Shown: positions 2,971 to 63,041 of the stretch, in pieces
Layout of the letters: every line of letters begins with the position of its first letter
Numbering within the stretch: position 1 is the first letter of the stretch
NCBI GenBank assembly: GCA_023246355.1
Contig: JAHFIQ010000001.1
Location: 17,887-81,886, forward strand
Direction: 5' to 3'
Length of the DNA: 64,000 bases
From: Candidatus Uhrbacteria bacterium
GTDB taxonomy: Bacteria > Patescibacteriota > Patescibacteriia > UBA9934 > GWF2-40-263
Made by a program: the position numbers and the translations under genes
Notes under the pieces: generated by a model
What the model was told of the DNA's origin: nothing
The model's input: the letters and a program-made list of their open reading frames with translations, nothing else
Databases searched by the model: none

Positions 2971-2998
2971 CACAACCAAAAAACAGGGGCGAACCCTG
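2971..2998 (-). terminator. rho-independent terminator downstream of tsf (minus strand)
   Basis: On the minus strand: CAGGG-TTCGC-CCCTG hairpin followed by TTTTTTGG. Confidence 0.55.
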
Positions 2999-3138
2999 TT
3001 TCTTTTCTGATGGGACTGTTTCCAAATGCGATGAGACCTGCTTGAACGGGGAAGCCAGCCGCCGAGACGTAGTGAAAACTACGTTGAGGTGGTGGCGGGG
3101 CCCCGTGAAAGCAGGGATCGCGCATTTGGGAAGAGTCC

Positions 3139-3726
3139 CTAGATACTGAAGCGAGCAAACCGCCGTATCTGCATATTCTCTCCCAGACTGGCGATTTTGC
3201 TTTTTACAAATTCCTCAATGGTCACATCCTCGTCCTTGATGAACGGCTGTTCCAGAAGCACGACCTCAGAATACCATTTGTTGAGTTTCCCTTCGACGAT
3301 TTTCGCGATCACCTCAGAGGGTTTGCCTTGCCCTTCCATTTCAGCCGTATAAATTTCTTTTTCCTTTGTCACGATCTCCTCTGGCACATCCTGACGAGAG
3401 AGATACAAAGGATCCGCCGCACTCACATGCAAGGCCAGGTCATGACAAAAAGAAATGAACGCTTCGTTGCGCGCGACAAAATCTGTCTCACACAATACTT
3501 CGACCATGGCGCCGAGCTTTCCATTGGCATGGATATAGCTATGCACACGACCCTCGTGGGTTTCGCGGTCAGCTTTCTTGGCAGCCTTGGCCACGCCGCG
3601 CTCTCGCAAGAGAACAACCGCTTTCTCCACGTCCCCCGATGTTTCCTCCAGAGCTTTTTTGGCGTCCATCATGCCGGCCCCTGTTTGGGCGCGCAGATCG
3701 GCCACCTGTTTTGCATCAATGCTCAT
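3139..3726 (-). CDS. tsf: elongation factor Ts
   Basis: 195 aa; N-terminus ...LRAQTGAGMMDAKKAL; co-oriented with rpsB in the usual rpsB-tsf order. Confidence 0.9.
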   Translation of the reverse strand: MSIDAKQVADLRAQTGAGMMDAKKALEETSGDVEKAVVLLRERGVAKAAKKADRETHEGRVHSYIHANGKLGAMVEVLCETDFVARNEAFISFCHDLALHVSAADPLYLSRQDVPEEIVTKEKEIYTAEMEGQGKPSEVIAKIVEGKLNKWYSEVVLLEQPFIKDEDVTIEEFVKSKIASLGENMQIRRFARFSI

Positions 3727-8322: not shown

Positions 8323-9053
8323 GTCATATAACCTAGTCGTTACCGTCGGATGGCGAAGCGCAAGCTAAACCCAATCGACACAGCGCTCGTGAAGACGAAA
8401 GTCCACACGATCGCGAACGATCACGGGATCGAGAACAGGAAAAGGAAACTCAAGGCGACGGCCGAGAGTCAGGCACCGTTGGTGTCCCATAAGCCAAGCT
8501 TGAGGATTAAAACCCCTCAGCCGCAAACGGGAACAAACACCAGCCGCCGTCCTAATCCCCTCGTGAACCTGATCACCCCTCCTCAAAGCGAGTATCGACA
8601 ACATTCGGGTTCGCCTGGACAACATCGAGAAAACTCTGAGGACTCAAGGACAAAGCTCCTGCGTACCTGTGGAAAGACAGCAATGTCGATCCTAGCCAGT
8701 AGCCGAGGCCATAGATCTGCGACAAGTGATCCTCACGGATCAACTACCGCAAGTCAAAGCCAAAAGCGAAAGCAACAGAAAAACAGAAGCTGACAAGATG
8801 TCGCGGTAATAACCAAAAGCCAAGACTCACGTTTGTCCAAGAGAACGTCCGGAGGGATGGAGAGTGCATGACTGAAAATCTGGAACAAACGTGAGAGACG
8901 CTTGCGCCTCTTCCGTCCAGGTCAAGGTTTACACCTTCCACTCCCCTCCGTTCGTTGGAACGCCTGCGAACAAAGACCTCGGTCTCCACCCGCAACGACA
9001 GACTCACGCCCAAAAAGCCTCTGAGTCTGTTTTCTATTTGCTATACTTTCCCC

Positions 9054-9965
9054 ATGACCGTCATGGAAGCCCTTCAGTGGGCGAACAACAAACTGCGTAA
9101 GACTGGCGTTGATTCGCCTATGTTGGACGCGGAAATTCTTCTCTCTCACACCCTTGAAGTTTCCAAGTCATGGCTGTTTTCGCATTTCACGGATCCGCTC
9201 AAGACGCACCAACGAGAAAAATTCCATCTGCTCGTGGATCGCCGAGGCACCAGAGAACCTGTCGCCTACTTGGTTGGAAAAAAATCGTTCTACGGGCGTG
9301 ATTTTCAAGTGAACTCCTTTGTCCTCATCCCTCGGCCAGAAACAGAAACGCTCATCGAGACAGCGCTTGAGGTTCTGAGAGATGCTGATCCTGAGAGAAC
9401 ATTGCTTGCCGACATCGGCACAGGATCAGGAGCTATCGCTGTGACACTGGCCGCCGAGACCAAGCTTCCCATGATCGCGAGCGACATCGATCCCTCGGCG
9501 CTTTCCGTTGCAAAACAAAACGCCGCGCTCGCGGGCGTCGCTGACCAAATCGATTTCCAACAAGGCAATCTTGCCGAGCCTCTCATCCGCCTTTTCAAAT
9601 CCATTCGAGGACAGACAGGAGTCAAAACATCATCCGTGTATCCATTCAAACATCTGGTCGTCACCGCAAATCTTCCTTACTTACCCGAATCCAGAATCGA
9701 GAGACTGGAACCTGAAGTAAAAACCTACGAACCGCATCTCGCTCTTGCCTCAGGCGCGGACGGCCTTGATCATTACTTTGAACTGTTCCGTGAGCTCCGC
9801 CAAAATCGCAAAGTCCTTCCACGCCGTCTCACGGTCGTGATCGAAATCGATCCTGACCAAAAAACAGCCATTGAAAAGATGCTCCACCACGACTTCCCGA
9901 GCGCCAAGCCCGAAACACACAAGGACCTGCACGGCCACGATCGAGTGGTGAGGGTGGAGCTGTAG
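9054..9965 (+). CDS. prmC: release factor glutamine N5-methyltransferase (PrmC/HemK)
   Basis: Internal Met MTVMEALQWANNKL...; SAM-MTase motif DIGTGSGAIA; NPPY-like VTANLPYL. Confidence 0.8.
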   Translation: MTVMEALQWANNKLRKTGVDSPMLDAEILLSHTLEVSKSWLFSHFTDPLKTHQREKFHLLVDRRGTREPVAYLVGKKSFYGRDFQVNSFVLIPRPETETLIETALEVLRDADPERTLLADIGTGSGAIAVTLAAETKLPMIASDIDPSALSVAKQNAALAGVADQIDFQQGNLAEPLIRLFKSIRGQTGVKTSSVYPFKHLVVTANLPYLPESRIERLEPEVKTYEPHLALASGADGLDHYFELFRELRQNRKVLPRRLTVVIEIDPDQKTAIEKMLHHDFPSAKPETHKDLHGHDRVVRVEL

Positions 9966-10027
9966 CTTGACGGCCGTGCTTTTTTGTGCGATCGTGTGGC
10001 TGGTCATCCAGACCATCCGGAGTTGCG

Positions 10028-18329: not shown

Positions 18330-20160
18330 GGTAGAAAGCTTTGCCGAACGCGAGGTGTCGAGTTCGTCCTGAACGAATGATTCCCTGTTCGGCTCCTGAG
18401 TGACGAATCTGGTAGTGCTACAAAACGAATGAACAAGTGTCACTCTTCACTCGACGAGAGGTTCCATGTCGACCCAGTTCGACGAGGTCGACCTTGTCGA
18501 GTTCCAGTCTGACGTGGGTAGAAGTGCCTCATGGCGCTGCAATGTCTGTCAGACTTTATCAGGCGAACAACACGATGCCTTTACAGGCGTAGATCGCGGT
18601 GCCTGATTCTGTTGTGCGAGAAGTAGTTTGGCTTCGCGCCGTACCTCGGTATGCACGACTCCGATCGGACGAATCAACGGCTGTCTTCCAGCGACTTGCC
18701 CTCTGTCCGATCCAAGCTCGACGTAGCTTAGACTGTACAAAACGATCCAAGCGTTGTCGAGCAAACTGTGGACGTGTGCCTGGTTGTTTCCTACGAAGGC
18801 GTTCCTGTCCACTCAACTGCTGTACGATCCCGTGCCTGTCGAAAGACGAACCCACCGATGTACAGCACCGTCTGACGTCTATCGTGCTGACCGAGGTCGA
18901 CCAAGCCGATGTCAGACTCCCTATCGGACGACTACTACCTTGTCGAAAGACGGAGAAGAGTATGTCCAAATCTGTCGTGCGAATCCTTCGATGACCCTTG
19001 AGTCGAATCGGTCGTTGCACGACTCTTGCTGGACGATTGAACAGCTGCCTAATAGCGAGACATCGCGTGTCCAGCTTCCCGTGAACGATCACCGCAGTGC
19101 CTTCATGGCGAATGATCATGTGTTCAACACCGCTGCGCGAGTCAAGGTGTGTTGAAAGACGACTCCATGTCTGCGCAGCAACTCGAGTGACAAGCGATGG
19201 ACTGTTGAAAAACGATTCACCACGTGTCACTGACCCCATCGGGCGAAAGATGCAGTGGCGAGAGCCGCCGTGTGCTGTGCCTGATTGCAAGTGGACGAGA
19301 ACTACACTGCCCCTGGCTATCTGGCAGGTGTCAAGCCTCACTCGACGCAGGGCGACATGTCCAAACCCATCATTGAGATCAACTCGACTAGGATGGGCAA
19401 AGACGAAGTTCATGATGTCGAGTTTCCGTTGTGCGATCATCCGAATGACTTCGGTCGAAGCTACACTTGCACAACTCATGAGTGACGTATGAACGGCTGT
19501 TGAAAAACGCGTTGGCTAGTGTCACTCCTCCGCCCTTGGCTTCGGCCTTGGGTGTTTTATTTTGAACGACGTACTTGTGACCATATGGTCGAGAGTTCGT
19601 CACGTTCCAAATAGAGCGAAACATTGACATCTGTCCTCTTTCGGCGTAGTCATGAGGAGTCGGGCGTAGGAGATGTTGTTGAAAGACGACTGGTAGATGC
19701 CCGATTCTGCTGGACGATTTCGAGACTGCCATCTGGCGATCGTTGTGGTGTCCGGCTCCTGATGGACGAAGGTAGTCATGTCTTCGGACGATACTACACC
19801 TGTCCTTTTCCAGCTCGACGAATCATCCAGTGTTCACGGACGTGACGTACATTGTCGAGCCAACTCGTGGACGTGTGCCTGGTTGTTTCCAACGAAGGCG
19901 TTCCTGTCCGGTCTTGCCGAGCGAGGAGTAGCGTGTCGAAAGACGTAGGTCCATTTGCTCGGCCATCGAGTGAAGATTCGACTGATGTCGAAAGATGTTC
20001 CAGGGGATGTCACTCACTCCTTCGACGACCAGCCACGTGTCGCAAGACGATAGGCAAGGTGTCGAACAACTATCGGGCGAATCACGGACTGTCTCCGGAC
20101 GTCTGTAGAAGTGCCCGATTTCCAACCCTTGTCCCTTGGACGACCCAAGGGATTTTCTTT
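18330..20160. repeat. ORF-free ~1.8 kb region dense in degenerate short repeats centred on GACGA (TCGAAAGACGA / TGGACGA / TCGGACGA) and 43-60-nt diverged long repeats
   Basis: About 20 GACGA plus ~6 GACGT in 1.9 kb, against ~2 expected by chance. GUC-GAAA-GAC hairpins are frequent. 18768-18810 matches 19867-19909 at 42/43 nt, and the extended repeat is ~60 nt. The region is TA-depleted and CpG-rich, and no ORF has protein-like composition. Confidence 0.7.
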
Positions 20161-20296
20161 TTCTCTTAACCTAGCCAAAACGACGTAACCGGGTAACGAC
20201 TTTCATTGACACCAACGGAAGTTCCATGCTAGTTTGCGCCGTTGCTTTTCGAGCAACAAAACCCAAAGCCGACGGGCTCAAAACGTAGGTACCCAG

Positions 20297-21938
20297 ATGC
20301 GTTGCATCGGCATCCGACACCGTGTCAAGCAGACCAAGGACGGCGAAGCGCGTCCCACCCAGATGGTCATGTACGAGGACGACCAGTACACGAGCTACGA
20401 GCTGGAAGACGACAACGCCGAGCTCGACTTCGTGCGAGGCCGCTTCCCGGTCGCGTTCCGAGCCATCAACGAGACCGACAACCTCACGGACTTCAGCCCG
20501 CGGCACATCAAGTGGCGCACGGTGAGGAAGGACGAGGACACGAGCAAGCTCAATGCCGCGCACACGCGCAAGGTCGAAGGCAAGCTCCAGGTCGCGACCA
20601 AGGTGCCCACGAACTACGACGGCCTCAAGTCCGGCGACGTGGTGGGCATGAGCATGGGAGGCTCGGGCGACCGATTCGCCTATGCCCTCTCCAAGGTCGG
20701 CGAGAGCGTGGGTGCGACGGTCTACCGTCTTCCGCCCTTCGAGCTCAAGCGGATGCGTGTCGTGGACGCGAAGGACGAAGACGCGAAGCTCCTCGCCATC
20801 CTCGTGCGCGATCGTCGTGGACTCTTCCACGAAACGACGGCCGTCACTCGACGCATCATCAGCGTGCGTGAGTGCCAGGCCCTGCGAATCGACGCCCCTG
20901 AAGGGTCGGATCGCCTGCGAGCAGCGCCTGCAGAAGGCGATGATCGGACGCGTGTTCTGCACCGAGGGCGATTTCGCGGAGTTGGACATCGAGGCAGCGT
21001 TTGGTGAGATCAAGGCCAACGACCGCATCTACACGGCGCTCTCGGAAGAAGAAGGACAGCGCCTGCGCGCCCTGGACGCGGCCGTGAAGGAGACGGACGT
21101 GTGGCAGGAAATCCTCGACGACGTGATGGGCATCGGGCCCGCACTCGGCGGACGGATCATCTCGGCCGTGGGCGACTTCGGTCGGTTCATGGTCGAGCCC
21201 GACCAGGCGCAGATGGACGCCCTGTACAAGGAAAGCGTCCGGCTCGAACGCGAAGGCGGCTTCAAGGAGCTGCGCCAGTTCGTCCAGGAAGGTGACAACC
21301 CCTTCCAGACGCTGCAGCGCGTCGCCTCCTGGTGCCGCGCCAACGGCCGTCCCACCGAGGCAGCGAAGCTCGCCCGCGCGGTGCAGTGCCACGAGGAGCG
21401 CTCCAAACTCCGCCGCGACGCCCGCAACAAGACCCGCGGCAAGCTCAAGGCCTTCATGGGCGTGCACCTCCAGGTGAAGATCCACTGCGCCTCCTGTGGC
21501 AAGTTCCTCTCCGAGGGAGATCTCGTCGACAAGCAGACCGGGGAATCCAGTCCGCTCTGTCCCAAGTGCGGTGCCGAGTCGATCGTGTACGAGAACGTGT
21601 TCGCCAGGCGGCGTGGCGGCTCGGTGTCCAACTGGCATCCGGACGCGCGCCAGGCGCTCTACCTGCTGGGCGACCAGTTCAACCGGCAGAGCAACCGCAC
21701 GCGCTGGGGAGCCATGCTCCTCGACTACAAGGCGAAGTTCCGCGCCAAGCACCCGCAGGAAACGGATCCGGAAACCGGAAAGTCCCGTTACAGTGACGGC
21801 CACATCCACAAGATGGCCATGTGGCGGACGCTGACCAAGTTCGTGGAGTGGCTCGCCGATCAGTGGAGCGAACTGGTTCGCCGAGAGAGGCAGGCTGCCG
21901 CAGAGGCAAAGGTCAGCAAGGCCTCCATGAGCGCCTAG
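20297..21938 (+). pseudogene. TnpB/Cas12-like RuvC + zinc-ribbon protein with a +1 frameshift at the C4 tract (~20895-20898); would be ~547 aa if repaired
   Basis: GC3 bias passes from frame 2 to frame 0 at CCCC 20895-98. Motifs present: VVGMSMGGSGDRFAYALS (RuvC-I-like with S in the D position), VWQEILDDV (RuvC-II-like), IISAVGDFGRF..LYKESV (TnpB signature between RuvC-II and the zinc finger), CASCGK...CPKCG (OrfB zinc ribbon) and HPDARQALYL (degenerate RuvC-III). Confidence 0.45.
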
Positions 21939-34545: not shown

Positions 34546-34689
34546 CGTCTGGAGAGACCACTGCAAAGCTGCGTCTTTTCGTTTCACGGGCACCCGTCGA
34601 CCCCACTCTACGTAGAGAACCTACGTTTCGTGGGGCTCGACAGCCCGTTCAACGAAAATCCATCAGTTTTTCAGTGGTCTCTCACACAT

Positions 34690-36219
34690 ATGAAATACGA
34701 ACCGATTATCGGACTTGAAATTCACGTGCAGCTGAAAACGAAAACAAAGATGTTTTGTGGTTGCGCTGCTCACGACCAAGGCGTTCCACCAAACACGAAC
34801 GTCTGCCCAATTTGTCTGGGACACCCTGGCGTTTTGCCTGTGCCAAACGAGGCGGCTATTCGCTATGGGGTGCTCATGGGCCTCGCTCTCAACTGCACCA
34901 TTGCCGCGCATTCAAAATTCGACCGCAAGAATTATTTTTATCCTGACCTTCCCAAGGCGTACCAAATTTCCCAGTACGACTTGCCCATTGCGATCAACGG
35001 CTCGGTTGAAATTGATGTTCCCGGTGGGGAGCGTGAGCATGTCACCATTGGCATCACCCGAGCTCACTTGGAAGAAGACGCAGCCAAATCGTTTCACACA
35101 CATGACGGCAGTACGTGCGTTGATTTTAATCGTGGAGGCACGCCGCTTGTGGAAATCGTCACCGAGCCTGATTTTCGTTCGTCCAAGGAAGCCAAAGTCT
35201 TCCTGCAGGAGCTTCGACTGATCGCCCGCTACTTGGGAGTGTCCGACGCAGACATGGAAAAAGGTCACCTACGCTGTGATGCAAACGTGTCGCTTCGACG
35301 ACTTGATGAAAAAGGCGATGTGGTCGGTGAACGTTTCAATCCAAAAACAGAAGTCAAAAACCTGAACTCGTTCCGCCATGTCGAACGGGCGATTGAGTTT
35401 GAAATTGCTCGTCAAACGCATTTGTGGGAATCAGACACGCCGCCGCTTATCTCAACCACTCGCGGATGGAACGACACACGCGGCATCACCGAGGAACAGC
35501 GCTCCAAAGAAGAAGCCGCGGATTATCGTTACTTTCCGGAGCCTGACATTCCACCTCTGGCGCTCACCGAAATTGCCGACGAGATGCGCATGAAGCTGCC
35601 TGAATTGCCCTCTGCGCGACGAGTTCGATTCGCAACAGAGTACGGACTCAAACCCTCCGACGCACGCCAAATCTGTGATGATCCAGCGCTCGCTGATTTT
35701 GTGGAAGCGGTCTTCTCTGAGCTTGACTCGTGGCTACGTGCTCTGCCAGAAATGGAAGGACTGGACGAGGAGGCTCTCATCAAAGAACGTGGCAAGCTTG
35801 CCAACCTTGTCTCTGGCTGGCTTCTGTCAAAACTCATGGGCCTCATGATGGATCGCGGGATTGATATCCGCACGAGCAAAATCTCTCCAGAAAACTTTGC
35901 CGAATTCATCACGCTCATCGCGAGCCGCAAAATCAACAACACCACTGGCCTCACGATTCTCTCCTCCATGCTCGACAATGGCGACGACCCATCACATATC
36001 ATGGAAGACAAGCAGCTTGGACGCATGGATGACGCAAGTGAACTTGCTGAAATCGTGAGTCGTGTCCTTGCGGAAAATCCGGCGGAAGTCCTGCGCTACC
36101 AAGCAGGCGAAGAACAGCTGCTCAAATTGTTCATCGGTCTTGTCATGAAATCCACAGAAGGCACAGCCGACGCTGCCCTCACAAAAAATATCTTGCTGGT
36201 GAAGCTCAAAGCTGAATAA
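34690..36219 (+). CDS. gatB: aspartyl/glutamyl-tRNA amidotransferase subunit B
   Basis: Internal Met MKYEPIIGLEIHVQL...; GatB catalytic and YqeY-like tail. Confidence 0.9.
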   Translation: MKYEPIIGLEIHVQLKTKTKMFCGCAAHDQGVPPNTNVCPICLGHPGVLPVPNEAAIRYGVLMGLALNCTIAAHSKFDRKNYFYPDLPKAYQISQYDLPIAINGSVEIDVPGGEREHVTIGITRAHLEEDAAKSFHTHDGSTCVDFNRGGTPLVEIVTEPDFRSSKEAKVFLQELRLIARYLGVSDADMEKGHLRCDANVSLRRLDEKGDVVGERFNPKTEVKNLNSFRHVERAIEFEIARQTHLWESDTPPLISTTRGWNDTRGITEEQRSKEEAADYRYFPEPDIPPLALTEIADEMRMKLPELPSARRVRFATEYGLKPSDARQICDDPALADFVEAVFSELDSWLRALPEMEGLDEEALIKERGKLANLVSGWLLSKLMGLMMDRGIDIRTSKISPENFAEFITLIASRKINNTTGLTILSSMLDNGDDPSHIMEDKQLGRMDDASELAEIVSRVLAENPAEVLRYQAGEEQLLKLFIGLVMKSTEGTADAALTKNILLVKLKAE

Positions 36220-40551: not shown

Positions 40552-40593
40552 ACAAAAAATCACCCTGCGTTTTATCGCAAGGTGATTTTTGTT
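40552..40593. terminator. bidirectional terminator between 40195..40551(+) and thrS(-)
   Basis: An A-run, then ATCACC(C)TGCG...CGCA(A)GGTGAT stem-loop, then a T-run. Confidence 0.55.
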
Positions 40594-43588: not shown

Positions 43589-43608
43589 AGATGAGCAAAT
43601 TATACCAA

Positions 43609-43758
43609 TAACTTCTTGGAAAGAAAAATTCTGGTCGAATGGTCTGCCTGCCCGCCATCGGCCTGCGCCTCAGGCGCTGGCAGGCGGGGCGAGCCCCACA
43701 GAATGTTTGCGTGGGGTCGGACAGACCTGAGACCAGAATTTTTCTTTCCAAGAAGTTA
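43609..43758. repeat. palindromic intergenic element copy 1 (28-bp perfect inverted arms + conserved 48-nt core)
   Basis: Arms TAACTTCTTGGAAAGAAAAATTCTGGTC / GACCAGAATTTTTCTTTCCAAGAAGTTA. Core ...GGCGAGCCCCACAGAATGTTTGCGTGGGGTCGGACAGACCTGA. The right arm ends on the dnaE stop codon. Confidence 0.8.
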
Positions 43759-47295: not shown

Positions 47296-47330
47296 AAAAA
47301 CAGCTCCGACGCAACGTCGGAGCTGTTTTG
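47296..47330. terminator. bidirectional hairpin terminator (ACAGCTCCGACG-CAA-CGTCGGAGCTGT flanked by A-run and T-run)
   Basis: Perfect 12-bp stem between an A-run and a T-run; it terminates the minus-strand gene 47332..47631. Confidence 0.6.
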
Positions 47331-50067: not shown

Positions 50068-50079
50068 AGTGAGATGTTT

Positions 50080-50188
50080 GATCTGTGCAAAACGATGCCT
50101 GTTCTCCTCAGGACCTGTCCGACCCCACACAAACATTCTGTGGGGCTCGCCAGGCCGTTCGTCGAACATTCATCGTTTTGCACAGATC
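50080..50188. repeat. palindromic intergenic element copy 2 (18-bp perfect arms; core in reverse orientation)
   Basis: Arms GATCTGTGCAAAACGATG / CATCGTTTTGCACAGATC; the core is the reverse complement of the core of copies 1 and 3. Fills the pheS-pheT spacer, and its right arm overlaps the pheS stop. Confidence 0.8.
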
Positions 50189-51215
50189 AAAATTGATTCA
50201 AGAAACGCAGGTCGCCACTTTCAAAAAGTCGAATATCGTCAATGCCATACTTGAGCATCACCAAGCGCATGAGTCCAAACCCAAACGCAAATCCGGAATG
50301 CGTCTGAGGATCTACTCCCCCCTCGCGCAACACGTTTGGATGGATCATGCCAGCTCCAAACACTTCGAGCCAACCGGATTTCTTACACAATCGACACCCA
50401 TCGCCCTTGCAAAGATAACACGTGACTTCGCCATTCACACCTGGCTCAACGAATGGATAAAATTTGGGACGTAGACGGATCTTCGTCTCTTGCCCATAGA
50501 GATGTTTCCCCACGGCCTCCAGCACCCCCTTCAAATGCGCAAACGAAATGCCGCGGTCAACGACCACACCTTCAATCTGATGCAAGGTATGTTCGTGGCG
50601 GACATCGGTCGCTTCGTTTCGAAAGCAACGTCCAGGAACAATCATCCGAAGTGGCACGCCATACTCTCGCATGCCGCGGATTTGCACCGGCGAGGTATGC
50701 GTTCGCATCACTACTCCCTCATGACCTTTCACATAAAACGTATCCTGCATATCGCGAGCTGGATGGGTTGGAGGGATGTTGAGCGCCGTAAAGTTAAAAA
50801 AATCACTTTCCATTTGCGGGCCGTCAGCCACAATAAACCCCATCGACGTAAACAAATCCTCAAGGTCCTCCCGCACCTGCGTAATCGGATGCAGATGTCC
50901 TTTTGGATGTGACGTCATCTCTGGCTGTGTGACATCGATCCACTCCCCTGAAGCCTTCGATGCCAAGGAAGCCTTCGATGCCATTTCGATTGCCTCCGCG
51001 TACGCCGTTTCGATCGCCTCCTTGACTTCGTTCACCATCGCCCCCACCAGCTTGCGCTCCTCCTGTGCCAAACTCGCCATGTCTTTCATGGCCGCATTCA
51101 GCTTTCCACGGCGACCCAAAAATTCTGTCTTGAGTTGTTCAAGTGCATCGCGATCTGTCACCTTCGCCACAAGATGCAAAAAATCTTTTTTGACGTGTTG
51201 AAGCTGCTCCTTCAT
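50187..51215 (-). CDS. pheS: phenylalanyl-tRNA synthetase alpha subunit
   Basis: 342 aa with class II motifs and the PheS-specific region. Confidence 0.9.
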   Translation of the reverse strand: MKEQLQHVKKDFLHLVAKVTDRDALEQLKTEFLGRRGKLNAAMKDMASLAQEERKLVGAMVNEVKEAIETAYAEAIEMASKASLASKASGEWIDVTQPEMTSHPKGHLHPITQVREDLEDLFTSMGFIVADGPQMESDFFNFTALNIPPTHPARDMQDTFYVKGHEGVVMRTHTSPVQIRGMREYGVPLRMIVPGRCFRNEATDVRHEHTLHQIEGVVVDRGISFAHLKGVLEAVGKHLYGQETKIRLRPKFYPFVEPGVNGEVTCYLCKGDGCRLCKKSGWLEVFGAGMIHPNVLREGGVDPQTHSGFAFGFGLMRLVMLKYGIDDIRLFESGDLRFLNQF

Positions 51216-53535: not shown

Positions 53536-54375
53536 TTACTTCCCCAATCGTTTTTTATCTTCAGATTTTTGTAGATAATTCTTCTTTGAGACGACAGAAC
53601 GACCAAGGCGTTTCTCCAGATTCTTTCTTGCCCCTCCAGCGATATCTCCACCAGCCTTAGCGTCCGCACGCAATTTCTTTACCCCTTTTGAATCTTCTGT
53701 ACGGTGAATTTCCGTTGTCGCTCGCTCACCAAGCATGTTGAAAATAAGTTCAAAGTCATCCATGTGATCACGTAGGTTTTCCCGCTTGAGACCTTTGAGT
53801 TTTTTATACTCACTTGGCGTAACGCCAAACGTGGCTTTGGAAATTTCCGCAGTCAAAATTTCATAATCTTGTCGATCTTTCGCCCCTCGATTTTTCCATT
53901 CTTCCGTAAGCTCCTCACGAATAACAATGCCACGCATTCTTTTTTCTATCCAGTCTTCATTGTAGCCCTTAAGTTTGTAGAGCATCCTCGTCCTTTTTGT
54001 GGCCAGCTCTGGATTTTCAATTTCCTGCACTCGTTCATATCCAACCTTTGCCAACCAACGCTTAAAAGGTTCGGCTTTGGGGGATGGAATCGACTGAATG
54101 AGACGAAAAATACCTTCTGTGTCAGCACAGTCGGTTTCGTACTTTTTGCCGTCTGATGCTTCCAGTTTCAGTTGTCTACAAATTGTAGACAACTGAAACT
54201 GGCTTTCATCATGAACCCTAGCTTTCATCGCCGTCCAGTACTTACTGGGTTGAGAACTGTCTGTCAGTGCTTCAATAACATCCACAACCGAAAACCACCA
54301 CTCCCCCTGATGGAGCGTCCTTCGAATTTTCTTTCCCTTAAACAGGGCAATTTTTTGGATGTTCGTTGAATCCAT
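53536..54375 (-). CDS. Bro-N domain / DinD-like (DNA damage-inducible protein D family) protein
   Basis: 279 aa; the N-terminal Bro-N-like region and the C-terminal region resemble DinD. Confidence 0.55.
   Translation of the reverse strand: MDSTNIQKIALFKGKKIRRTLHQGEWWFSVVDVIEALTDSSQPSKYWTAMKARVHDESQFQLSTICRQLKLEASDGKKYETDCADTEGIFRLIQSIPSPKAEPFKRWLAKVGYERVQEIENPELATKRTRMLYKLKGYNEDWIEKRMRGIVIREELTEEWKNRGAKDRQDYEILTAEISKATFGVTPSEYKKLKGLKRENLRDHMDDFELIFNMLGERATTEIHRTEDSKGVKKLRADAKAGGDIAGGARKNLEKRLGRSVVSKKNYLQKSEDKKRLGK
54162..54202. repeat. 41-nt perfect palindrome (20-bp arms) inside the DinD-like CDS
   Basis: CCAGTTTCAGTTGTCTACAA-A-TTGTAGACAACTGAAACTGG; encodes ...QFQLSTICRQLKLE.... Confidence 0.8.
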
Positions 54376-59510: not shown

Positions 59511-61712
59511 ATGGGAAAGGAGGCACAGCAACAGGTCATGGATCAGGCTCAAGCAAGACGCCAGGAAACATTCATGGCGGGGCTTATTGCAGGCATGAAA
59601 AAAGACCCAAGCTCCAGAGGTGCTCTCATGGCACTGGGTCGAACAGGCATTGGTTCTGCGATCATCGACCTCACTCCGTTTTTGGGAGGCATCAAACAAA
59701 TCAACGAAAGCATTGACGGCGAACGAACCACTGGAGAAAAACTCAGTGGAAAAAAACGGATCATTCATGGTCTGGTAGGCGCAGGAAGCCTGGTATTGGA
59801 TTTCACAGGAATAGGAGAAGGGGTAGAACTGCTGAAAGTTGGTGGAAAATCTGTCGGGCTTGTGAAAGGCGTTGCTTCTAAACTCGCGGGTCGAGGTGCA
59901 ACCAAGTCTGCTGCGCTTTTTGAAAAATCAGCCGCCTTCATGGTGAAAAACCCTGAGCTCGTCGCGGCAGGAGAAAAAGCCGCACAGAATCACATCGATG
60001 ACGCCATCCGGTATACCAGCAAAGCTTCCAAAAGCGATGCGCGCAAAACACTCAAAGAGGAAGCTTCTAAACACCTACCACCAGAAATAGCTGGTGCTCT
60101 GATTGATGCAGGGGAAGCCAAACTCAGAGGATCTGTCTTCCCTTCTGGTGGCCAAACATCGCCCACAAGCAGTCCACTGAATTTGGAATCCGCGCGCAAA
60201 GCGGCATTGACAGCGAGACGTGTGCAAAGCTTTGCACAGCAGGCGCCTGCTGTATCCGCACAGACACTCTTTTCAGAATCCTCTCAAAATCAGATAAGCG
60301 TGAGCGCACAAAAACAAGAGGCACCGAGCGATCAAACGCAGACGACGGAGAGTGTGACAAAACAGGAGATCATGGAAAAAGCGCAGAGCGGGCGTGTCAA
60401 AACATTTCTGGCTGCCAGAGCAAAAGGCACAGTCATGTCAGTCGTGTCTGGTGGAACGTGGTTCATTGTAAAAAGAGTAGGTCAAAATAAGGTTGCCTCT
60501 GCCGTCATGGATCTCGTGCCATTTTTGGGAGGAATCAAACAACTAAGCGAAGCCGTCGATGGAAAGACAACCACAGGTGAAAAACTCGTCGGAAAAAAAA
60601 GGATCATTCATGGTCTTGTGGGCGTCGTGAGTTTCGGATTGGATTTCACGGGTGTTGGAGAGGTGGCCGAGGTGGTAAAAGGAGCTCGCATCGCCGGAAA
60701 ATCAACGGGATTCATGACGCGTTCAGCTGGGGTACTCAGTGCACGCGGCGCAACGAAGTCTGCGGCATTAGCAGAAAAATCTGCAGCTTTCATGGCACGC
60801 AATCCAGAGTTAGTCAAAGCGGCCGAAAACGTTGCTGAAAAACACCTAGACGATGGAATCAAGTATGTTCGTACTGCTTCCAAAAGTGATGCGCGTAAGA
60901 CCCTCAAAGAGGAAGCTTCCAAGTTCATGCCTCCGGCCGTTGCCGAAATCATCGTTCAAGCAGGTGAAGCAAAAATGAGAGGGGCTCCCATTCCTTCTAT
61001 CTCTGATTCCGCTCGCAAGGCCGCACTCAGTGCCGCAAGAGGATCCAAACCTTTACAGATGCCCGCCCATCAGCAACTTCGCATTCCACCAACTCCACGT
61101 GCACGTGACGAAGAGGAAGAGGAACAAGAAGCGCAAGAACAGGAACAGGCAGTGCTCTACGAGCAGGCACTTCTGAGCCACCTGATCCAATCTAAACGCA
61201 GCAAAGAGACAGAAGATGATGAAGAAGAGAAAAAAACGCTCGCACAAAAAGGCAAACGTGCTGCCGTGCGGTATGTCTTTAAACAGGCGATGCGACGCGG
61301 ATTTATTTTTCTGCTTGACTTTATCGCTGCAGCGTGCGACCTCTCGAGTGCGGGCATATCGTTTGTCATCGACATCTTCATCTACGCCTTCACGCTCGGT
61401 TACTTGAACCTAGAAATGATCTATGGAAGATGGATCGCGAAAGGCAAAAGTAAAATTATCTCTCCGACTTCCTGGTTTCCGATTCCCATGGTCGTTGATC
61501 CAGAGGCGATTATTCTACAAAGTTTCATCATAAGCATGGATATTGCTTTAGGAGTCGCTGTGGTCGTCATGGGAGCTGGTGGCATGTGCATCTTGCATGA
61601 TTACGTGACGCTTGTCTCAGATCCGGTAGCCGTAGGGACAGCCTTGGCGTCTGGCAACGTCGGAGATATGTGCTTGGGTGGTATAATGTCACTAGTCATC
61701 AATGGCATATGA
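59511..61712 (+). CDS. large hypothetical protein (733 aa) with an internal ~190-aa tandem duplication and a C-terminal multi-TM region
   Basis: Repeat 1 (~res 35-225) and repeat 2 (~res 305-500) share ...DLxPFLGGIKQ...TTGEKLxGKKRIIHGLVG...RGATKSAAL.EKSAAFM..NPELV...SKSDARKTLKEEASK.... Confidence 0.6.
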   Translation: MGKEAQQQVMDQAQARRQETFMAGLIAGMKKDPSSRGALMALGRTGIGSAIIDLTPFLGGIKQINESIDGERTTGEKLSGKKRIIHGLVGAGSLVLDFTGIGEGVELLKVGGKSVGLVKGVASKLAGRGATKSAALFEKSAAFMVKNPELVAAGEKAAQNHIDDAIRYTSKASKSDARKTLKEEASKHLPPEIAGALIDAGEAKLRGSVFPSGGQTSPTSSPLNLESARKAALTARRVQSFAQQAPAVSAQTLFSESSQNQISVSAQKQEAPSDQTQTTESVTKQEIMEKAQSGRVKTFLAARAKGTVMSVVSGGTWFIVKRVGQNKVASAVMDLVPFLGGIKQLSEAVDGKTTTGEKLVGKKRIIHGLVGVVSFGLDFTGVGEVAEVVKGARIAGKSTGFMTRSAGVLSARGATKSAALAEKSAAFMARNPELVKAAENVAEKHLDDGIKYVRTASKSDARKTLKEEASKFMPPAVAEIIVQAGEAKMRGAPIPSISDSARKAALSAARGSKPLQMPAHQQLRIPPTPRARDEEEEEQEAQEQEQAVLYEQALLSHLIQSKRSKETEDDEEEKKTLAQKGKRAAVRYVFKQAMRRGFIFLLDFIAAACDLSSAGISFVIDIFIYAFTLGYLNLEMIYGRWIAKGKSKIISPTSWFPIPMVVDPEAIILQSFIISMDIALGVAVVVMGAGGMCILHDYVTLVSDPVAVGTALASGNVGDMCLGGIMSLVINGI

Positions 61713-62926
61713 GTGAGCGCACAAAAAAACTTCTGCTGGTTGGAGGATTTATTCTGTCCGTTTTTCTCATTGCCTTCGTTCTCTATAAACTTTTTTTCAA
61801 AGGAATCGTGCCTGAAGCAAGCGTTGAACCGACCGTAGAAGCTCCTGGTGAACTTCCGACCTCAGGCGAAGGCGCTCCGGGTGTGACCACAGAAGAACCA
61901 ACCGGAACAACAGGACTCCAAGAAGCCGACGAGGTCGCCCATGGCGGACTGACCCAGACCGTGGAACTCACGACCGGCGCTGTCTACAACGCGGTGTTGA
62001 GTGGTGATGGATCAAGCATCAACTACTACAATGCCAGCGACGGACGTTTTTATACCATCAACGCCGATGGCGAAGTCGTCGCACTTTCTGACAAACAATT
62101 TCCCGAAGCCGAAAACGTCGAATGGAACAAGGATTCTGAAAAGGCCTTAATCGAATTTCCAGACGGAAGCAACATCATCTATGACTTCAGTGCGGAAAAA
62201 CAAGTCACCCTTCCCAATCACTGGGAGGACTTTGATTTCTCCCCGACGTCGGACGAAATCATTGGCAAAAGCGTGGCTCTGGATGAAAGCAATCGCTTCT
62301 TGGTGATTGCCAGCGACGACGGTTCCCAAGTCCAGGCGATTGCCGAGCTTGGAGAAAATGAAGATAAGGTCGACATCAACTGGTCGCCAAACGACCAAGT
62401 GGTTGCCTTTGCCAACACGGCTAGCTCAAGCTCCAGCGGAGTGGATCGCCACGTCATCTATCCTGTTGGCAAAAACCAAGAAAACTACAAAGGCTTAGTT
62501 GTCGAAGGTCTCAACTTTGATTCCCTCTGGTCCCCCAACGGGAAACAACTCCTCTACTCAGTGGCGGGCGACTATAGCGACAACAAGCCACTCCTATGGA
62601 TCGTCGATGCCACCGCTTCCACGATGGGAGACAACCGATCGAGTCTTGGACTCAATACCTGGGTGGATAAATGCTCCTGGTCTTCTGCCTCGACGGTCTA
62701 CTGTGCTGTGCCCATTGACCTGCCAGCAAACGCTGGTCTGCAGCGTTCCTTGTATCAGGATCTCCCCGACGCGTTGTACAAACTTGACCTCACCAGCAAC
62801 TCGGCTCGACTCATTGCCATTCCTGAGGAGGAGACATCCATGAGCGACCTTTGGGTGTCTGATGATGAATCGATGCTGTATTTCACCAACACAAGCGGAC
62901 AGTTGGAACTTCTCAAATTAAAATAG
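61709..62926 (+). CDS. membrane-anchored beta-propeller protein (TolB/PD40-like repeats)
   Basis: Start set at MSERTKKLLLVGGFILSVFLIAF (ATGA overlap with the upstream stop); WSPNG/NWSPND repeats. Confidence 0.55.
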   Translation: MSERTKKLLLVGGFILSVFLIAFVLYKLFFKGIVPEASVEPTVEAPGELPTSGEGAPGVTTEEPTGTTGLQEADEVAHGGLTQTVELTTGAVYNAVLSGDGSSINYYNASDGRFYTINADGEVVALSDKQFPEAENVEWNKDSEKALIEFPDGSNIIYDFSAEKQVTLPNHWEDFDFSPTSDEIIGKSVALDESNRFLVIASDDGSQVQAIAELGENEDKVDINWSPNDQVVAFANTASSSSSGVDRHVIYPVGKNQENYKGLVVEGLNFDSLWSPNGKQLLYSVAGDYSDNKPLLWIVDATASTMGDNRSSLGLNTWVDKCSWSSASTVYCAVPIDLPANAGLQRSLYQDLPDALYKLDLTSNSARLIAIPEEETSMSDLWVSDDESMLYFTNTSGQLELLKLK

Positions 62927-62927
62927 G

Positions 62928-63033
62928 TTCTTCTTCAAAAGTTATTTTTTTGTCGAAAGGGCTGGCGAGCCCCACAGAATGTTTGTGTGGGGTCGGACAG
63001 ACCTGAGACGAAAAAATAACTTTTGAAGAAGAA
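62928..63033. repeat. palindromic intergenic element copy 3 (27-bp near-perfect arms + conserved core)
   Basis: Arms TTCTTCTTCAAAAGTTATTTTTTTGTC / GACGAAAAAATAACTTTTGAAGAAGAA. Core GGCTGGCGAGCCCCACAGAATGTTTGTGTGGGGTCGGACAGACCTGA. Fills the spacer 62927-63041. Confidence 0.8.
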
Positions 63034-63041
63034 CCCATCGT

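Follow-up and report, generated by a model that had tools for sequence, protein, structure and literature searches.

What kind of DNA element keeps a nearly constant centre between long complementary arms that look unrelated from one copy to the next? The question is raised by a 64,000-nt stretch of a Candidatus Uhrbacteria genome, the whole of which was analysed and is referred to below as the window. A preliminary description had reported three intergenic palindromes with a shared core inside perfect, copy-specific inverted repeats, and had proposed either a structured RNA with a strongly selected closing helix or a mobile core whose insertion generates an inverted duplication of its flank. 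In our best reading, the palindromes belong to a previously undescribed family of MITE/REP-like palindromic elements. We further lean, with some reserve, towards the view that this is a lineage-specific family of non-autonomous mobile elements in which the whole hairpin, stem and tip together, moves as a unit.

A pattern search of the window located the core, GAGCCCCACAGAATGTTTGNGTGGGGTCGGACAG, at 43691-43724(+), 50115-50148(-) and 62967-63000(+). Three matches of the 34-nt pattern, compared with none in 100 shuffles, bear out the observation of three core copies. As a total for the window, three proved too low, as two more, diverged copies (c4 and c5) were detected, and further members were found outside it. 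The features to which the text refers are as follows.

43609-43758, + strand: c1, subfamily A; arms 43609-43636 and 43731-43758, core 43637-43730.
43647-43688, + strand: nested 42-nt GC-rich hairpin of c1, between GGTCTG and GCGAG, placed by alignment.
43589-43608, - strand: retained ancestral spacer of a 402-aa gene, with the extended -10-like motif TGGTATAAT; homologous to the empty-site spacer of L008.
50077-50191, - strand: c2, an A tip on a B-like stem, sense with pheS-pheT.
62925-63036, + strand: c3, subfamily A; arms 62925-62954 and 63007-63036, core 62955-63006.
34552-34683, - strand: c4, intermediate between A and B (nhmmer E=5e-6; covariance model 34.2 bits; fold z -9.9).
3013-3138, + strand: c5, subfamily B (nhmmer E=2e-29; fold -88 kcal/mol, z -10.9).
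L022 14877-15001: c6, subfamily B, 3 kb beyond the left end of the window in this genome, from profile and covariance-model searches.
L008 13501-13627: L008b, subfamily B, in the genome that also carries L001, from profile and covariance-model searches.

Subfamily A is the type first reported and comprises c1, c2, c3, L001 and L002. Subfamily B, with c5, c6 and L008b, is defined by an extra apical hairpin, and the intermediate c4 has an apical extension hairpin and imperfect arms. The B profile picks up A copies weakly (c2, E=0.006), indicating that the two subfamilies are homologous, and c5 was linked by BLAST to L008 13510-13612. The census stands at nine copies, six in ~84 kb of one genome and three in two other Uhrbacteria genomes. 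Genome-wide and metagenome-wide pattern scans used the subfamily A core, and B copies were sought within the fetched loci (L numbers). With the A core, the genome-wide scan found exact matches elsewhere only at L001 and L002, in two Candidatus Uhrbacteria genomes from groundwater metagenomes; four matches from the metagenome scan were rejected as chance matches inside coding sequence. The pheS and gatB genes of the window are closest to Uhrbacteria/Patescibacteria sequences.

Long palindromes in metagenomic contigs invite the suspicion that the arms are misassembled. Identical elements were present in several independent public assemblies of the same population; c3 was identical in four of them, with one contig breaking within it. 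In addition, short-read contigs from three samples end inside the core (position 1 of L016 and the ends of L020 and L021). Identical copies in independent assemblies, together with contig breaks in the core, indicate a real repeat, and the suspicion was not borne out. The overlapping open reading frames and the N-terminal extension of pheT had been called artefacts of the element, and we agree: orthologous pheT starts with MLISKKW directly after pheS, and in the ENA gene calls for this genome pheT runs 23 aa into c2 (828 aa vs ~805 aa).

The copies c1-c3 each fill a spacer between genes on the same strand, with Pfam assignments confirming the flanking genes. As had been described, their stems start at the upstream stop codon or within it; they stop short of the following start codon by 3-20 nt. 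The stops touched are the dnaE TAA at 43756-43758 (c1), the pheS TGA at 50187-50189 (c2) and a TAG at 62924-62926 (c3). Copy c1 is antisense to dnaE and the 402-aa gene, both on the - strand. Copy c2 is sense with pheS and pheT, likewise on the - strand, and c3 with its two + strand neighbours, a DsbA-like gene and a 418-aa ORF. Copy c4 fills the spacer ahead of gatB (ATG at 34690). Copy c5 adjoins the tsf stop codon (3139-3141, - strand) and is inserted between this stop and the tsf terminator hairpin at ~2980-3008. Both c4 and c5 are antisense to their flanking genes, and c6 is sense-oriented.

Some features of the surrounding DNA were recorded alongside. Canonical bidirectional terminator-like hairpins, each an A-run, a 5-15 bp stem and a T-run, lie at 2980-3008, 40555-40590 and 47297-47329 and exemplify the ordinary terminators of this genome. 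An extended -10-like motif (TGGTATAAT, TGCTATACT or TGTATACT) is conserved ~10 nt before the ATG of the 402-aa gene, at 43589-43608 (- strand) of the window, L008 18146-18168 and L026 ~20477-20511. To judge from this motif, the 402-aa gene that follows dnaE may be transcribed from a promoter of its own with a very short leader; c1 occupies precisely the interval from the dnaE stop to the motif. The PT-TG (pre-toxin) gene at 59511-61712, a polymorphic toxin locus adjoining c3, differs in length among strains of one population (712 vs 733 aa; L013 6533-8671, L014 554-2755).

All nine copies, 108-150 nt long, share a common plan, and c1-c3 each fold into one long rod-like hairpin with fold z-scores of -10 to -12. 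From the base towards the tip, an outer stem (~12-20 bp) gives way to an inner one (7-10 bp), after which come a tandem G·A junction of 2x2 nt (5'-GA/5'-GA), a helix of 6 bp (GGNCUG/CAGNCC in A, ACGGGG/CCCCGU in B), a small asymmetric internal loop and a GC helix (CCCCAC/GUGGGG in A). The apex is either a variable loop or an extra hairpin with another flanking GA/GA junction. A constant distance of 28-33 bp separates the GA junction from the stem base. GAUGA and (C)UGA-like motifs adjoin the closing stem, and the half-sites of the tip are asymmetric and conserved (GCGAG vs TCGGA). Copies from three genomes do not differ in their core stems or internal loops. The nested 42-nt hairpin of c1, predicted to fold as a side hairpin, occurs in no other copy. 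The T-run is found on the 5' side of the core in three copies (c3, c4 and L001), but on the 3' side in c1, c2 and L002.

The arms had been described as perfect, which is true of c1 (28 nt, 28/28 complementary) and of the outer arms of c2 (50077-50097 / 50171-50191; 21 nt, 21/21 paired) but not of c3, where the inverted repeat at its widest extent (62923-62954 / 63007-63038) is complementary at 30/32 positions (94%), with one G·T and one A·C. The inner stem of c2 (50098-50107 / 50161-50170) is imperfect and carries two tandem G·A junctions.

To ask how the palindromes arrived at these spacers, we compared the orthologous junctions of relatives. The L008-bearing genome is syntenic with the window. 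At the site of c1 it has the dnaE TAA, 23 nt and the ATG of the 402-aa gene, and this spacer has its homologue, also of 23 nt, immediately after c1 in the window; in L026 the dnaE junction is likewise empty and measures 35 nt. In L007, L008 and L010, whose PheS proteins are 79-90% identical to that of the window, only 1-3 nt separate the pheS stop from the pheT ATG. At the site of c4, gatB is preceded by spacers of 12 and 34 nt in two relatives (L026 and L027). None of the copies shows positional conservation, and the empty sites contain neither arm nor an earlier palindrome. This shows that arm, core and arm were inserted together, and the three junctions without the element support mobile insertion, one half of the second proposal in the preliminary description.

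The other half of that proposal, namely that insertion generates an inverted duplication of the flank, could not be upheld. We regard it as extremely improbable that a short mobile core copied its flank in inverted form, or landed in the loop of an existing palindrome. In its favour, the arms of c1 (TAA/TTA) and c2 (TTTGA/TCAAA) reach 3-5 nt into the stop-codon region, a short inverted continuation of the stem that could reflect a minor outward extension of the palindrome. An A tip on a B-like stem, as found in c2, would fit tips moving between hairpins of the family. Against flank copying, the arms are missing from the empty sites, and the full 23-nt ancestral spacer survives downstream of c1. 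Within +/-400 nt of flank, moreover, the longest words shared with the arms are at chance level, stems are common to copies at unrelated loci, and the total stem length is constant. The model is already contradicted for c1, c2 and c4. A third copy of any arm was not present in any sequence searched. Phage-derived "spacers" were ruled out as a source of the arms, as the three arm sequences searched had no exact match in viral contigs.

Visual comparison of the flanks of all nine copies revealed no consistent target-site duplication; only c6 has a direct repeat (CACTA/CACTA). As a candidate ortholog of c4, the gatB spacer of L011 (GatB 92% identical) was rejected, for it holds an unrelated element of another family. 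This second palindromic family has shared termini CTGTGTCATCC...GGGATGACACAG and occurs at L011 ~9880-9990 (before gatB) and L027 ~20150-20330 (after dnaE), with no copy in the window. Its presence at the same gatB and dnaE junctions in other Uhrbacteria marks these junctions as recurrent landing sites.

Further repeats of other kinds were seen. A perfect 20+1+20 bp palindrome without the core (CCAGTTTCAGTTGTCTACAA T TTGTAGACAACTGAAACTGG) lies at 54162-54202, inside the Bro-N domain ORF 53536-54375(-). Intergenic inverted repeats of purine-rich (GGTGG/AGGTTAGG-like) and CCACC-rich sequence were found at 26673-26779 of the window and at 1423-1608, 9019-9095 and 13885-13974 of L011; one of them occupies the same position in the window and in the syntenic L011, and they are of a different class from the hairpin elements. 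In L011 and L012 the last ~120 nt are made up of ~3 tandem copies of a 40-nt unit, GGGACCTGTCCCTCGAAGCTCGACAAGATCGAGCGAAGT; the corresponding place in the window is taken by the 3' end of the 402-aa gene. At L001 231-410, a 20-bp closing stem (95% complementary) surrounds a 140-nt GC-rich segment without a match in Rfam, which may be another structured element or RNA.

If the arms were inserted with the core, the question remains why they differ so much between copies. As a property of the family, the claim that they are completely different is not supported. The 10 bp next to the core are homologous among the A copies (5-8/10 identical positions), and the outer stems of c4, c6 and L008b are ~80-90% identical. 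Stems of c6 and L008b agree at 17/20 and 16/18 positions, although neither the locus nor the genome is the same, and those of c4 and c6 agree at 16/20 (shuffle p<0.0005 for both comparisons). The stem of c2 resembles the B stems (GA.CT.TG.AAAAC..GATGA; p ~0.01 vs c6, ~0.03 vs c4). Among the A copies the outer arms show weak mutual similarity (p 0.02-0.04), with little or none in c1, c3 and L002; shared descent of these outer stems is suggested by analogy with the B copies. Stems common to copies at different loci and in different genomes indicate that the arms are inherited parts of the element.

Tips show another pattern of relatedness. The tip of c6 is identical at 59/65 positions to that of c5 from the same genome, compared with 49/66 for its stem relative L008b, and the terminal loop is nearly identical in c1-c3 and differs in L001 and L002. 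Tips thus follow the genome and stems follow the element lineage, which points to exchange or homogenisation of tips between copies; on sequence comparison, the elements are mosaics of tips and stems. At four-fold degenerate sites, the window and its nearest relatives are 36-46% identical. With synonymous sites so close to saturation, unconstrained stem sequence has had time to randomise since the insertions could have taken place. The apparent paradox of young copies with unrelated arms is dissolved by this near-saturation and by the shared stems.

We next considered orientation. Relative to flanking genes, five of the nine copies are sense (c2, c3, c6, L002, and L001 relative to its upstream gene) and four are antisense (c1, c4, c5 and L008b). 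Of 16 bins, 15 have a negative GC skew, and the cumulative skew falls almost unbroken, so that the whole window lies in one replichore. Within it, the orientations alternate (c5 +, c4 -, c1 +, c2 -, c3 +), and a replication-strand bias is absent. Random orientation in one replichore fits a selfish element inserted at random, and argues against a host RNA that needs co-transcription as well as against strand-specific insertion of the IS200/REP type. As an observation in its own right, the six copies of this genome, at ~-3100, 3013, 34552, 43609, 50077 and 62925, alternate strictly (-,+,-,+,-,+), with a chance of ~0.03.

Orientation independent of transcription would also suit a host site acting at the DNA level, where the hairpin, a cruciform or the tip binds a chromosomal protein (for replication priming, segregation or the nucleoid), or where the element is a bidirectional terminator. 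In keeping with this, the A arms are Watson-Crick perfect without strand bias, and A/T runs flank the inner stem as they do in the genome's bidirectional terminators at 40555-40590 and 47297-47329. The order of T-run and A-run, however, is inverted in c3, c4 and L001, leaving no consistent terminator geometry, and the asymmetric tip half-sites are ill-suited to a symmetric dimer binding duplex DNA. Given also that the copies lack positional conservation and show no replication-strand bias although the window lies in one replichore, we hold a host DNA site to be quite unlikely.

Pairing statistics bear on the form in which the element is selected. In the five A copies, 18/20 arm pairs change on both sides and are still paired, whereas 13/15 core pairs are invariant; one core pair covaries between U-A and C-G (G-C in c4). 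Across six copies, the arms contain 166 Watson-Crick pairs, 4 G·T, 4 A·C and 7 other pairs, and in subfamily A arms the G·U pairs have no strand bias (4 vs 4). Wobble pairs are far fewer in these arms than is usual for evolving RNA helices. Mostly Watson-Crick arms without strand bias fit copying of one arm from the other at the DNA level. Quasipalindrome template switching is a known process that turns imperfect inverted repeats perfect (PMC7202029), and it has been suggested that template-switch copying maintains perfect inverted repeats in bacteria (PMC5941160). Such copying would, however, erase the G·A junctions and bulges, which are kept across subfamilies and genomes, and this indicates selection on the folded form.

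Which strand folds is indicated by an asymmetry. The tandem GA/GA junctions are conserved on one strand only, and this GA strand folds more stably than the other in 8/9 copies under both RNA and DNA parameters. In subfamily B, 11 G·U pairs are on the GA strand vs 2 on the other; in subfamily A the numbers are 7 vs 8. The asymmetry makes one strand of fixed polarity, either RNA or single-stranded DNA, the likely selected form, and, together with the covarying helices, suggests that this folded single strand is the propagating form.

The same asymmetry can be claimed for a host-functional structured RNA, that is, a cis-acting mRNA element serving processing, stability or translational coupling, or a small RNA gene, whose tip is bound by a host protein and whose closing helix is selected for pairing alone. 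The conserved GA/GA internal loops with covarying helices between them agree with such an RNA, as do the G·U bias of subfamily B and the greater stability of that strand. Extra hairpins occur only at loops or bulges (the c1 insertion and the apical extension of subfamily B), the core is identical across genomes with saturated synonymous sites, and the stems begin at a stop codon and end shortly before the next start. Yet the four antisense copies have no evident promoter, and a terminator precedes c5. Orthologous junctions are empty, and the A arms lack the G·U bias. Searches for a curated family, including the small ribozymes that the preliminary description had brought up, gave no support, even permissively: the window and four loci had no match in Rfam 15 at the gathering score, and at E<=10 only generic miRNA-precursor/hairpin models appeared, weakly. 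Overall, a host RNA seems to us improbable, though it deserves to be taken seriously.

Two specific folds were tried and rejected. A type II hammerhead was considered for the GAAA and CUGA flanking the closing stem; the elements fold as a rod without a three-way junction, neither CUGANGA nor A15.1-U16.1 falls into place, and Rfam gave no match. The register that a K-turn or box C/D would need at the outer junction in subfamily B breaks the outer stem.

The latter bears on the possibility of degenerate TIGR-type or box C/D-like guide RNA units with a variable closing stem, bound by a Nop-domain Tas protein. In CPR bacteria, TIGR stem-loop arrays have stems that are variable yet consistently palindromic, beside box C/D motifs (PMC12045711), and our elements recall this arrangement in having GAUGA and (C)UGA-like motifs beside their closing stem. 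The copies are, however, solitary and dispersed in housekeeping operons, their would-be spacers are conserved and pair with each other, the K-turn register is incompatible with the outer stem, and the window encodes no Nop-domain protein that we could find. A guide RNA origin is therefore very improbable.

Enzymes or carriers of the element were also sought. The window encodes no transposase, reverse transcriptase, HUH protein, Nop-domain protein or integrase. Cores A and B and three arm sequences found nothing relevant in viral contigs or in phage and plasmid records, and a six-frame translated search of the core against a protein database, meant to catch spurious ORFs, yielded one candidate and none that scored.

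Returning to the mobile hairpin that we favour, its life cycle can be outlined as follows. The hairpin, a rod in which tandem G·A junctions and single bulges set the short helices apart, would be copied as a whole via a folded single-stranded intermediate, RNA or ssDNA. Its landing place would be a tiny spacer right behind a stop codon, in either orientation. The asymmetric, G·A-studded tip would be the constant module, most likely recognised by an enzyme encoded elsewhere, and tips would be exchanged or homogenised between copies within a genome. The stem would need only pairing and would drift, while intrastrand template switching kept the arms complementary. Copies c1-c3 would then represent different old stem lineages with the same tip, which may be why they looked like one core with unrelated arms. 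The element may be tolerated only in short spacers behind stops, where a stable stem would loop the insert out of the mRNA. Once inserted and co-transcribed, it would give the mRNA a duplex of 28-33 bp. As a passenger the element is probably neutral, but it could also be cut by RNase III or stabilise the 3' end. Strong tip conservation in resident copies could alternatively reflect a host function.

A bolder version is that the element is a selfish hairpin, propagating as a folded single strand of fixed polarity, in which the tandem-G·A tip is the sole sequence-specific module, tips and stems are reshuffled, and mobilisation depends on an uncharacterised CPR protein, possibly a reverse transcriptase or an HUH-type nuclease. 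We offer this tentatively, as a possibility rather than an expectation; if true, reshuffling of tips and stems would amount to a modular evolution not described for bacterial repeats.

Small palindromic repeats have been well studied in Proteobacteria and Firmicutes, and in the literature we found no description of such repeats for CPR/Patescibacteria. CPR genomes are ~1 Mb in size and thought to be streamlined; here, hairpins of 110-150 nt are inserted into spacers of 1-35 nt within essential operons (dnaE, pheST, gatB and tsf). Conservation is the reverse of the classical pattern, with a constant tip, a drifting stem and mosaic combinations of the two, and the family points to a mobilisation mechanism not yet known. 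It also provides a natural system for studying the upkeep of long perfect palindromes. In practice, short-read assemblies are interrupted at the repeat, and CPR annotations acquire spurious ORFs and N-terminal extensions from it.

The family can finally be compared with known systems. MITE-type repeats that are co-transcribed with genes include Correia/nemis of Neisseria, ERIC of enterobacteria and BOX and RUP of pneumococci. Like these, the elements are ~100-150 bp long and non-coding, occupy spacers next to stop codons in either orientation, would form long mRNA hairpins and vary in presence among related genomes. As short, non-coding, dispersed repeats with insertion polymorphism (nine copies, three empty junctions) they resemble MITEs in general. 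A fixed-length direct target-site duplication was not found among the copies. With respect to terminal repeats, the outer stems of c4, c6 and L008b are similar and those of c1, c3 and L002 little or not, and the window holds no parent insertion sequence. Correia, ERIC, BOX and RUP have conserved terminal inverted repeats and a defined duplication, whereas here the tip is most conserved and the outer stem least, duplication is inconsistent and a parent insertion sequence is not known.

REP/REPIN elements, mobilised by RAYT (HUH Y1) proteins, and the ends of IS200/IS605 are likewise imperfect hairpins just downstream of genes. In both, conserved bulges and mismatches are read in the folded single strand by a trans-acting enzyme. 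REP stems are conserved with a 5' GTAG and REPIN loops vary, the reverse of the pattern here, where the tip is conserved and the stems vary. These known systems also have a replication-strand bias, while our elements alternate within one replichore, and the window contains no RAYT gene or other HUH protein. Intrinsic terminators are short GC-rich hairpins with a U-tract right behind them on the transcribed strand; the present stems, by contrast, measure 28-33 bp and the side of the T-run is inconsistent among copies. In integron attC sites, R''/R' core sites (RYYYAAC / GTTRRRY) are at the hairpin base, the tip is variable and an integrase is adjacent; here the stem bases differ and lack GTTRRRY, conservation is at the tip and no integrase is encoded in the window.

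Single-strand origins of the ssoA type work only as one folded DNA strand. These origins of rolling-circle plasmids resemble the present elements in being long imperfect hairpins in which small apical or internal motifs are kept and the rest only as structure, but they are plasmid-borne, single-copy and dependent on orientation relative to replication, and our elements are chromosomal, multi-copy and found in both orientations. Quasipalindrome correction (PMC7202029; PMC5941160), a mutational process and not an element, would explain Watson-Crick-perfect arms that diverge between copies. With TIGR arrays (PMC12045711) the family shares CPR hosts and variable palindromic closing stems next to short conserved purine motifs. 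Those arrays are tandem, lie next to tas and have box C/D K-turns and two unpaired variable spacers of 8-12 nt, whereas the elements described here are solitary, lack a Nop-domain match in the window, and have candidate spacers that pair, forming a conserved, self-paired interior.
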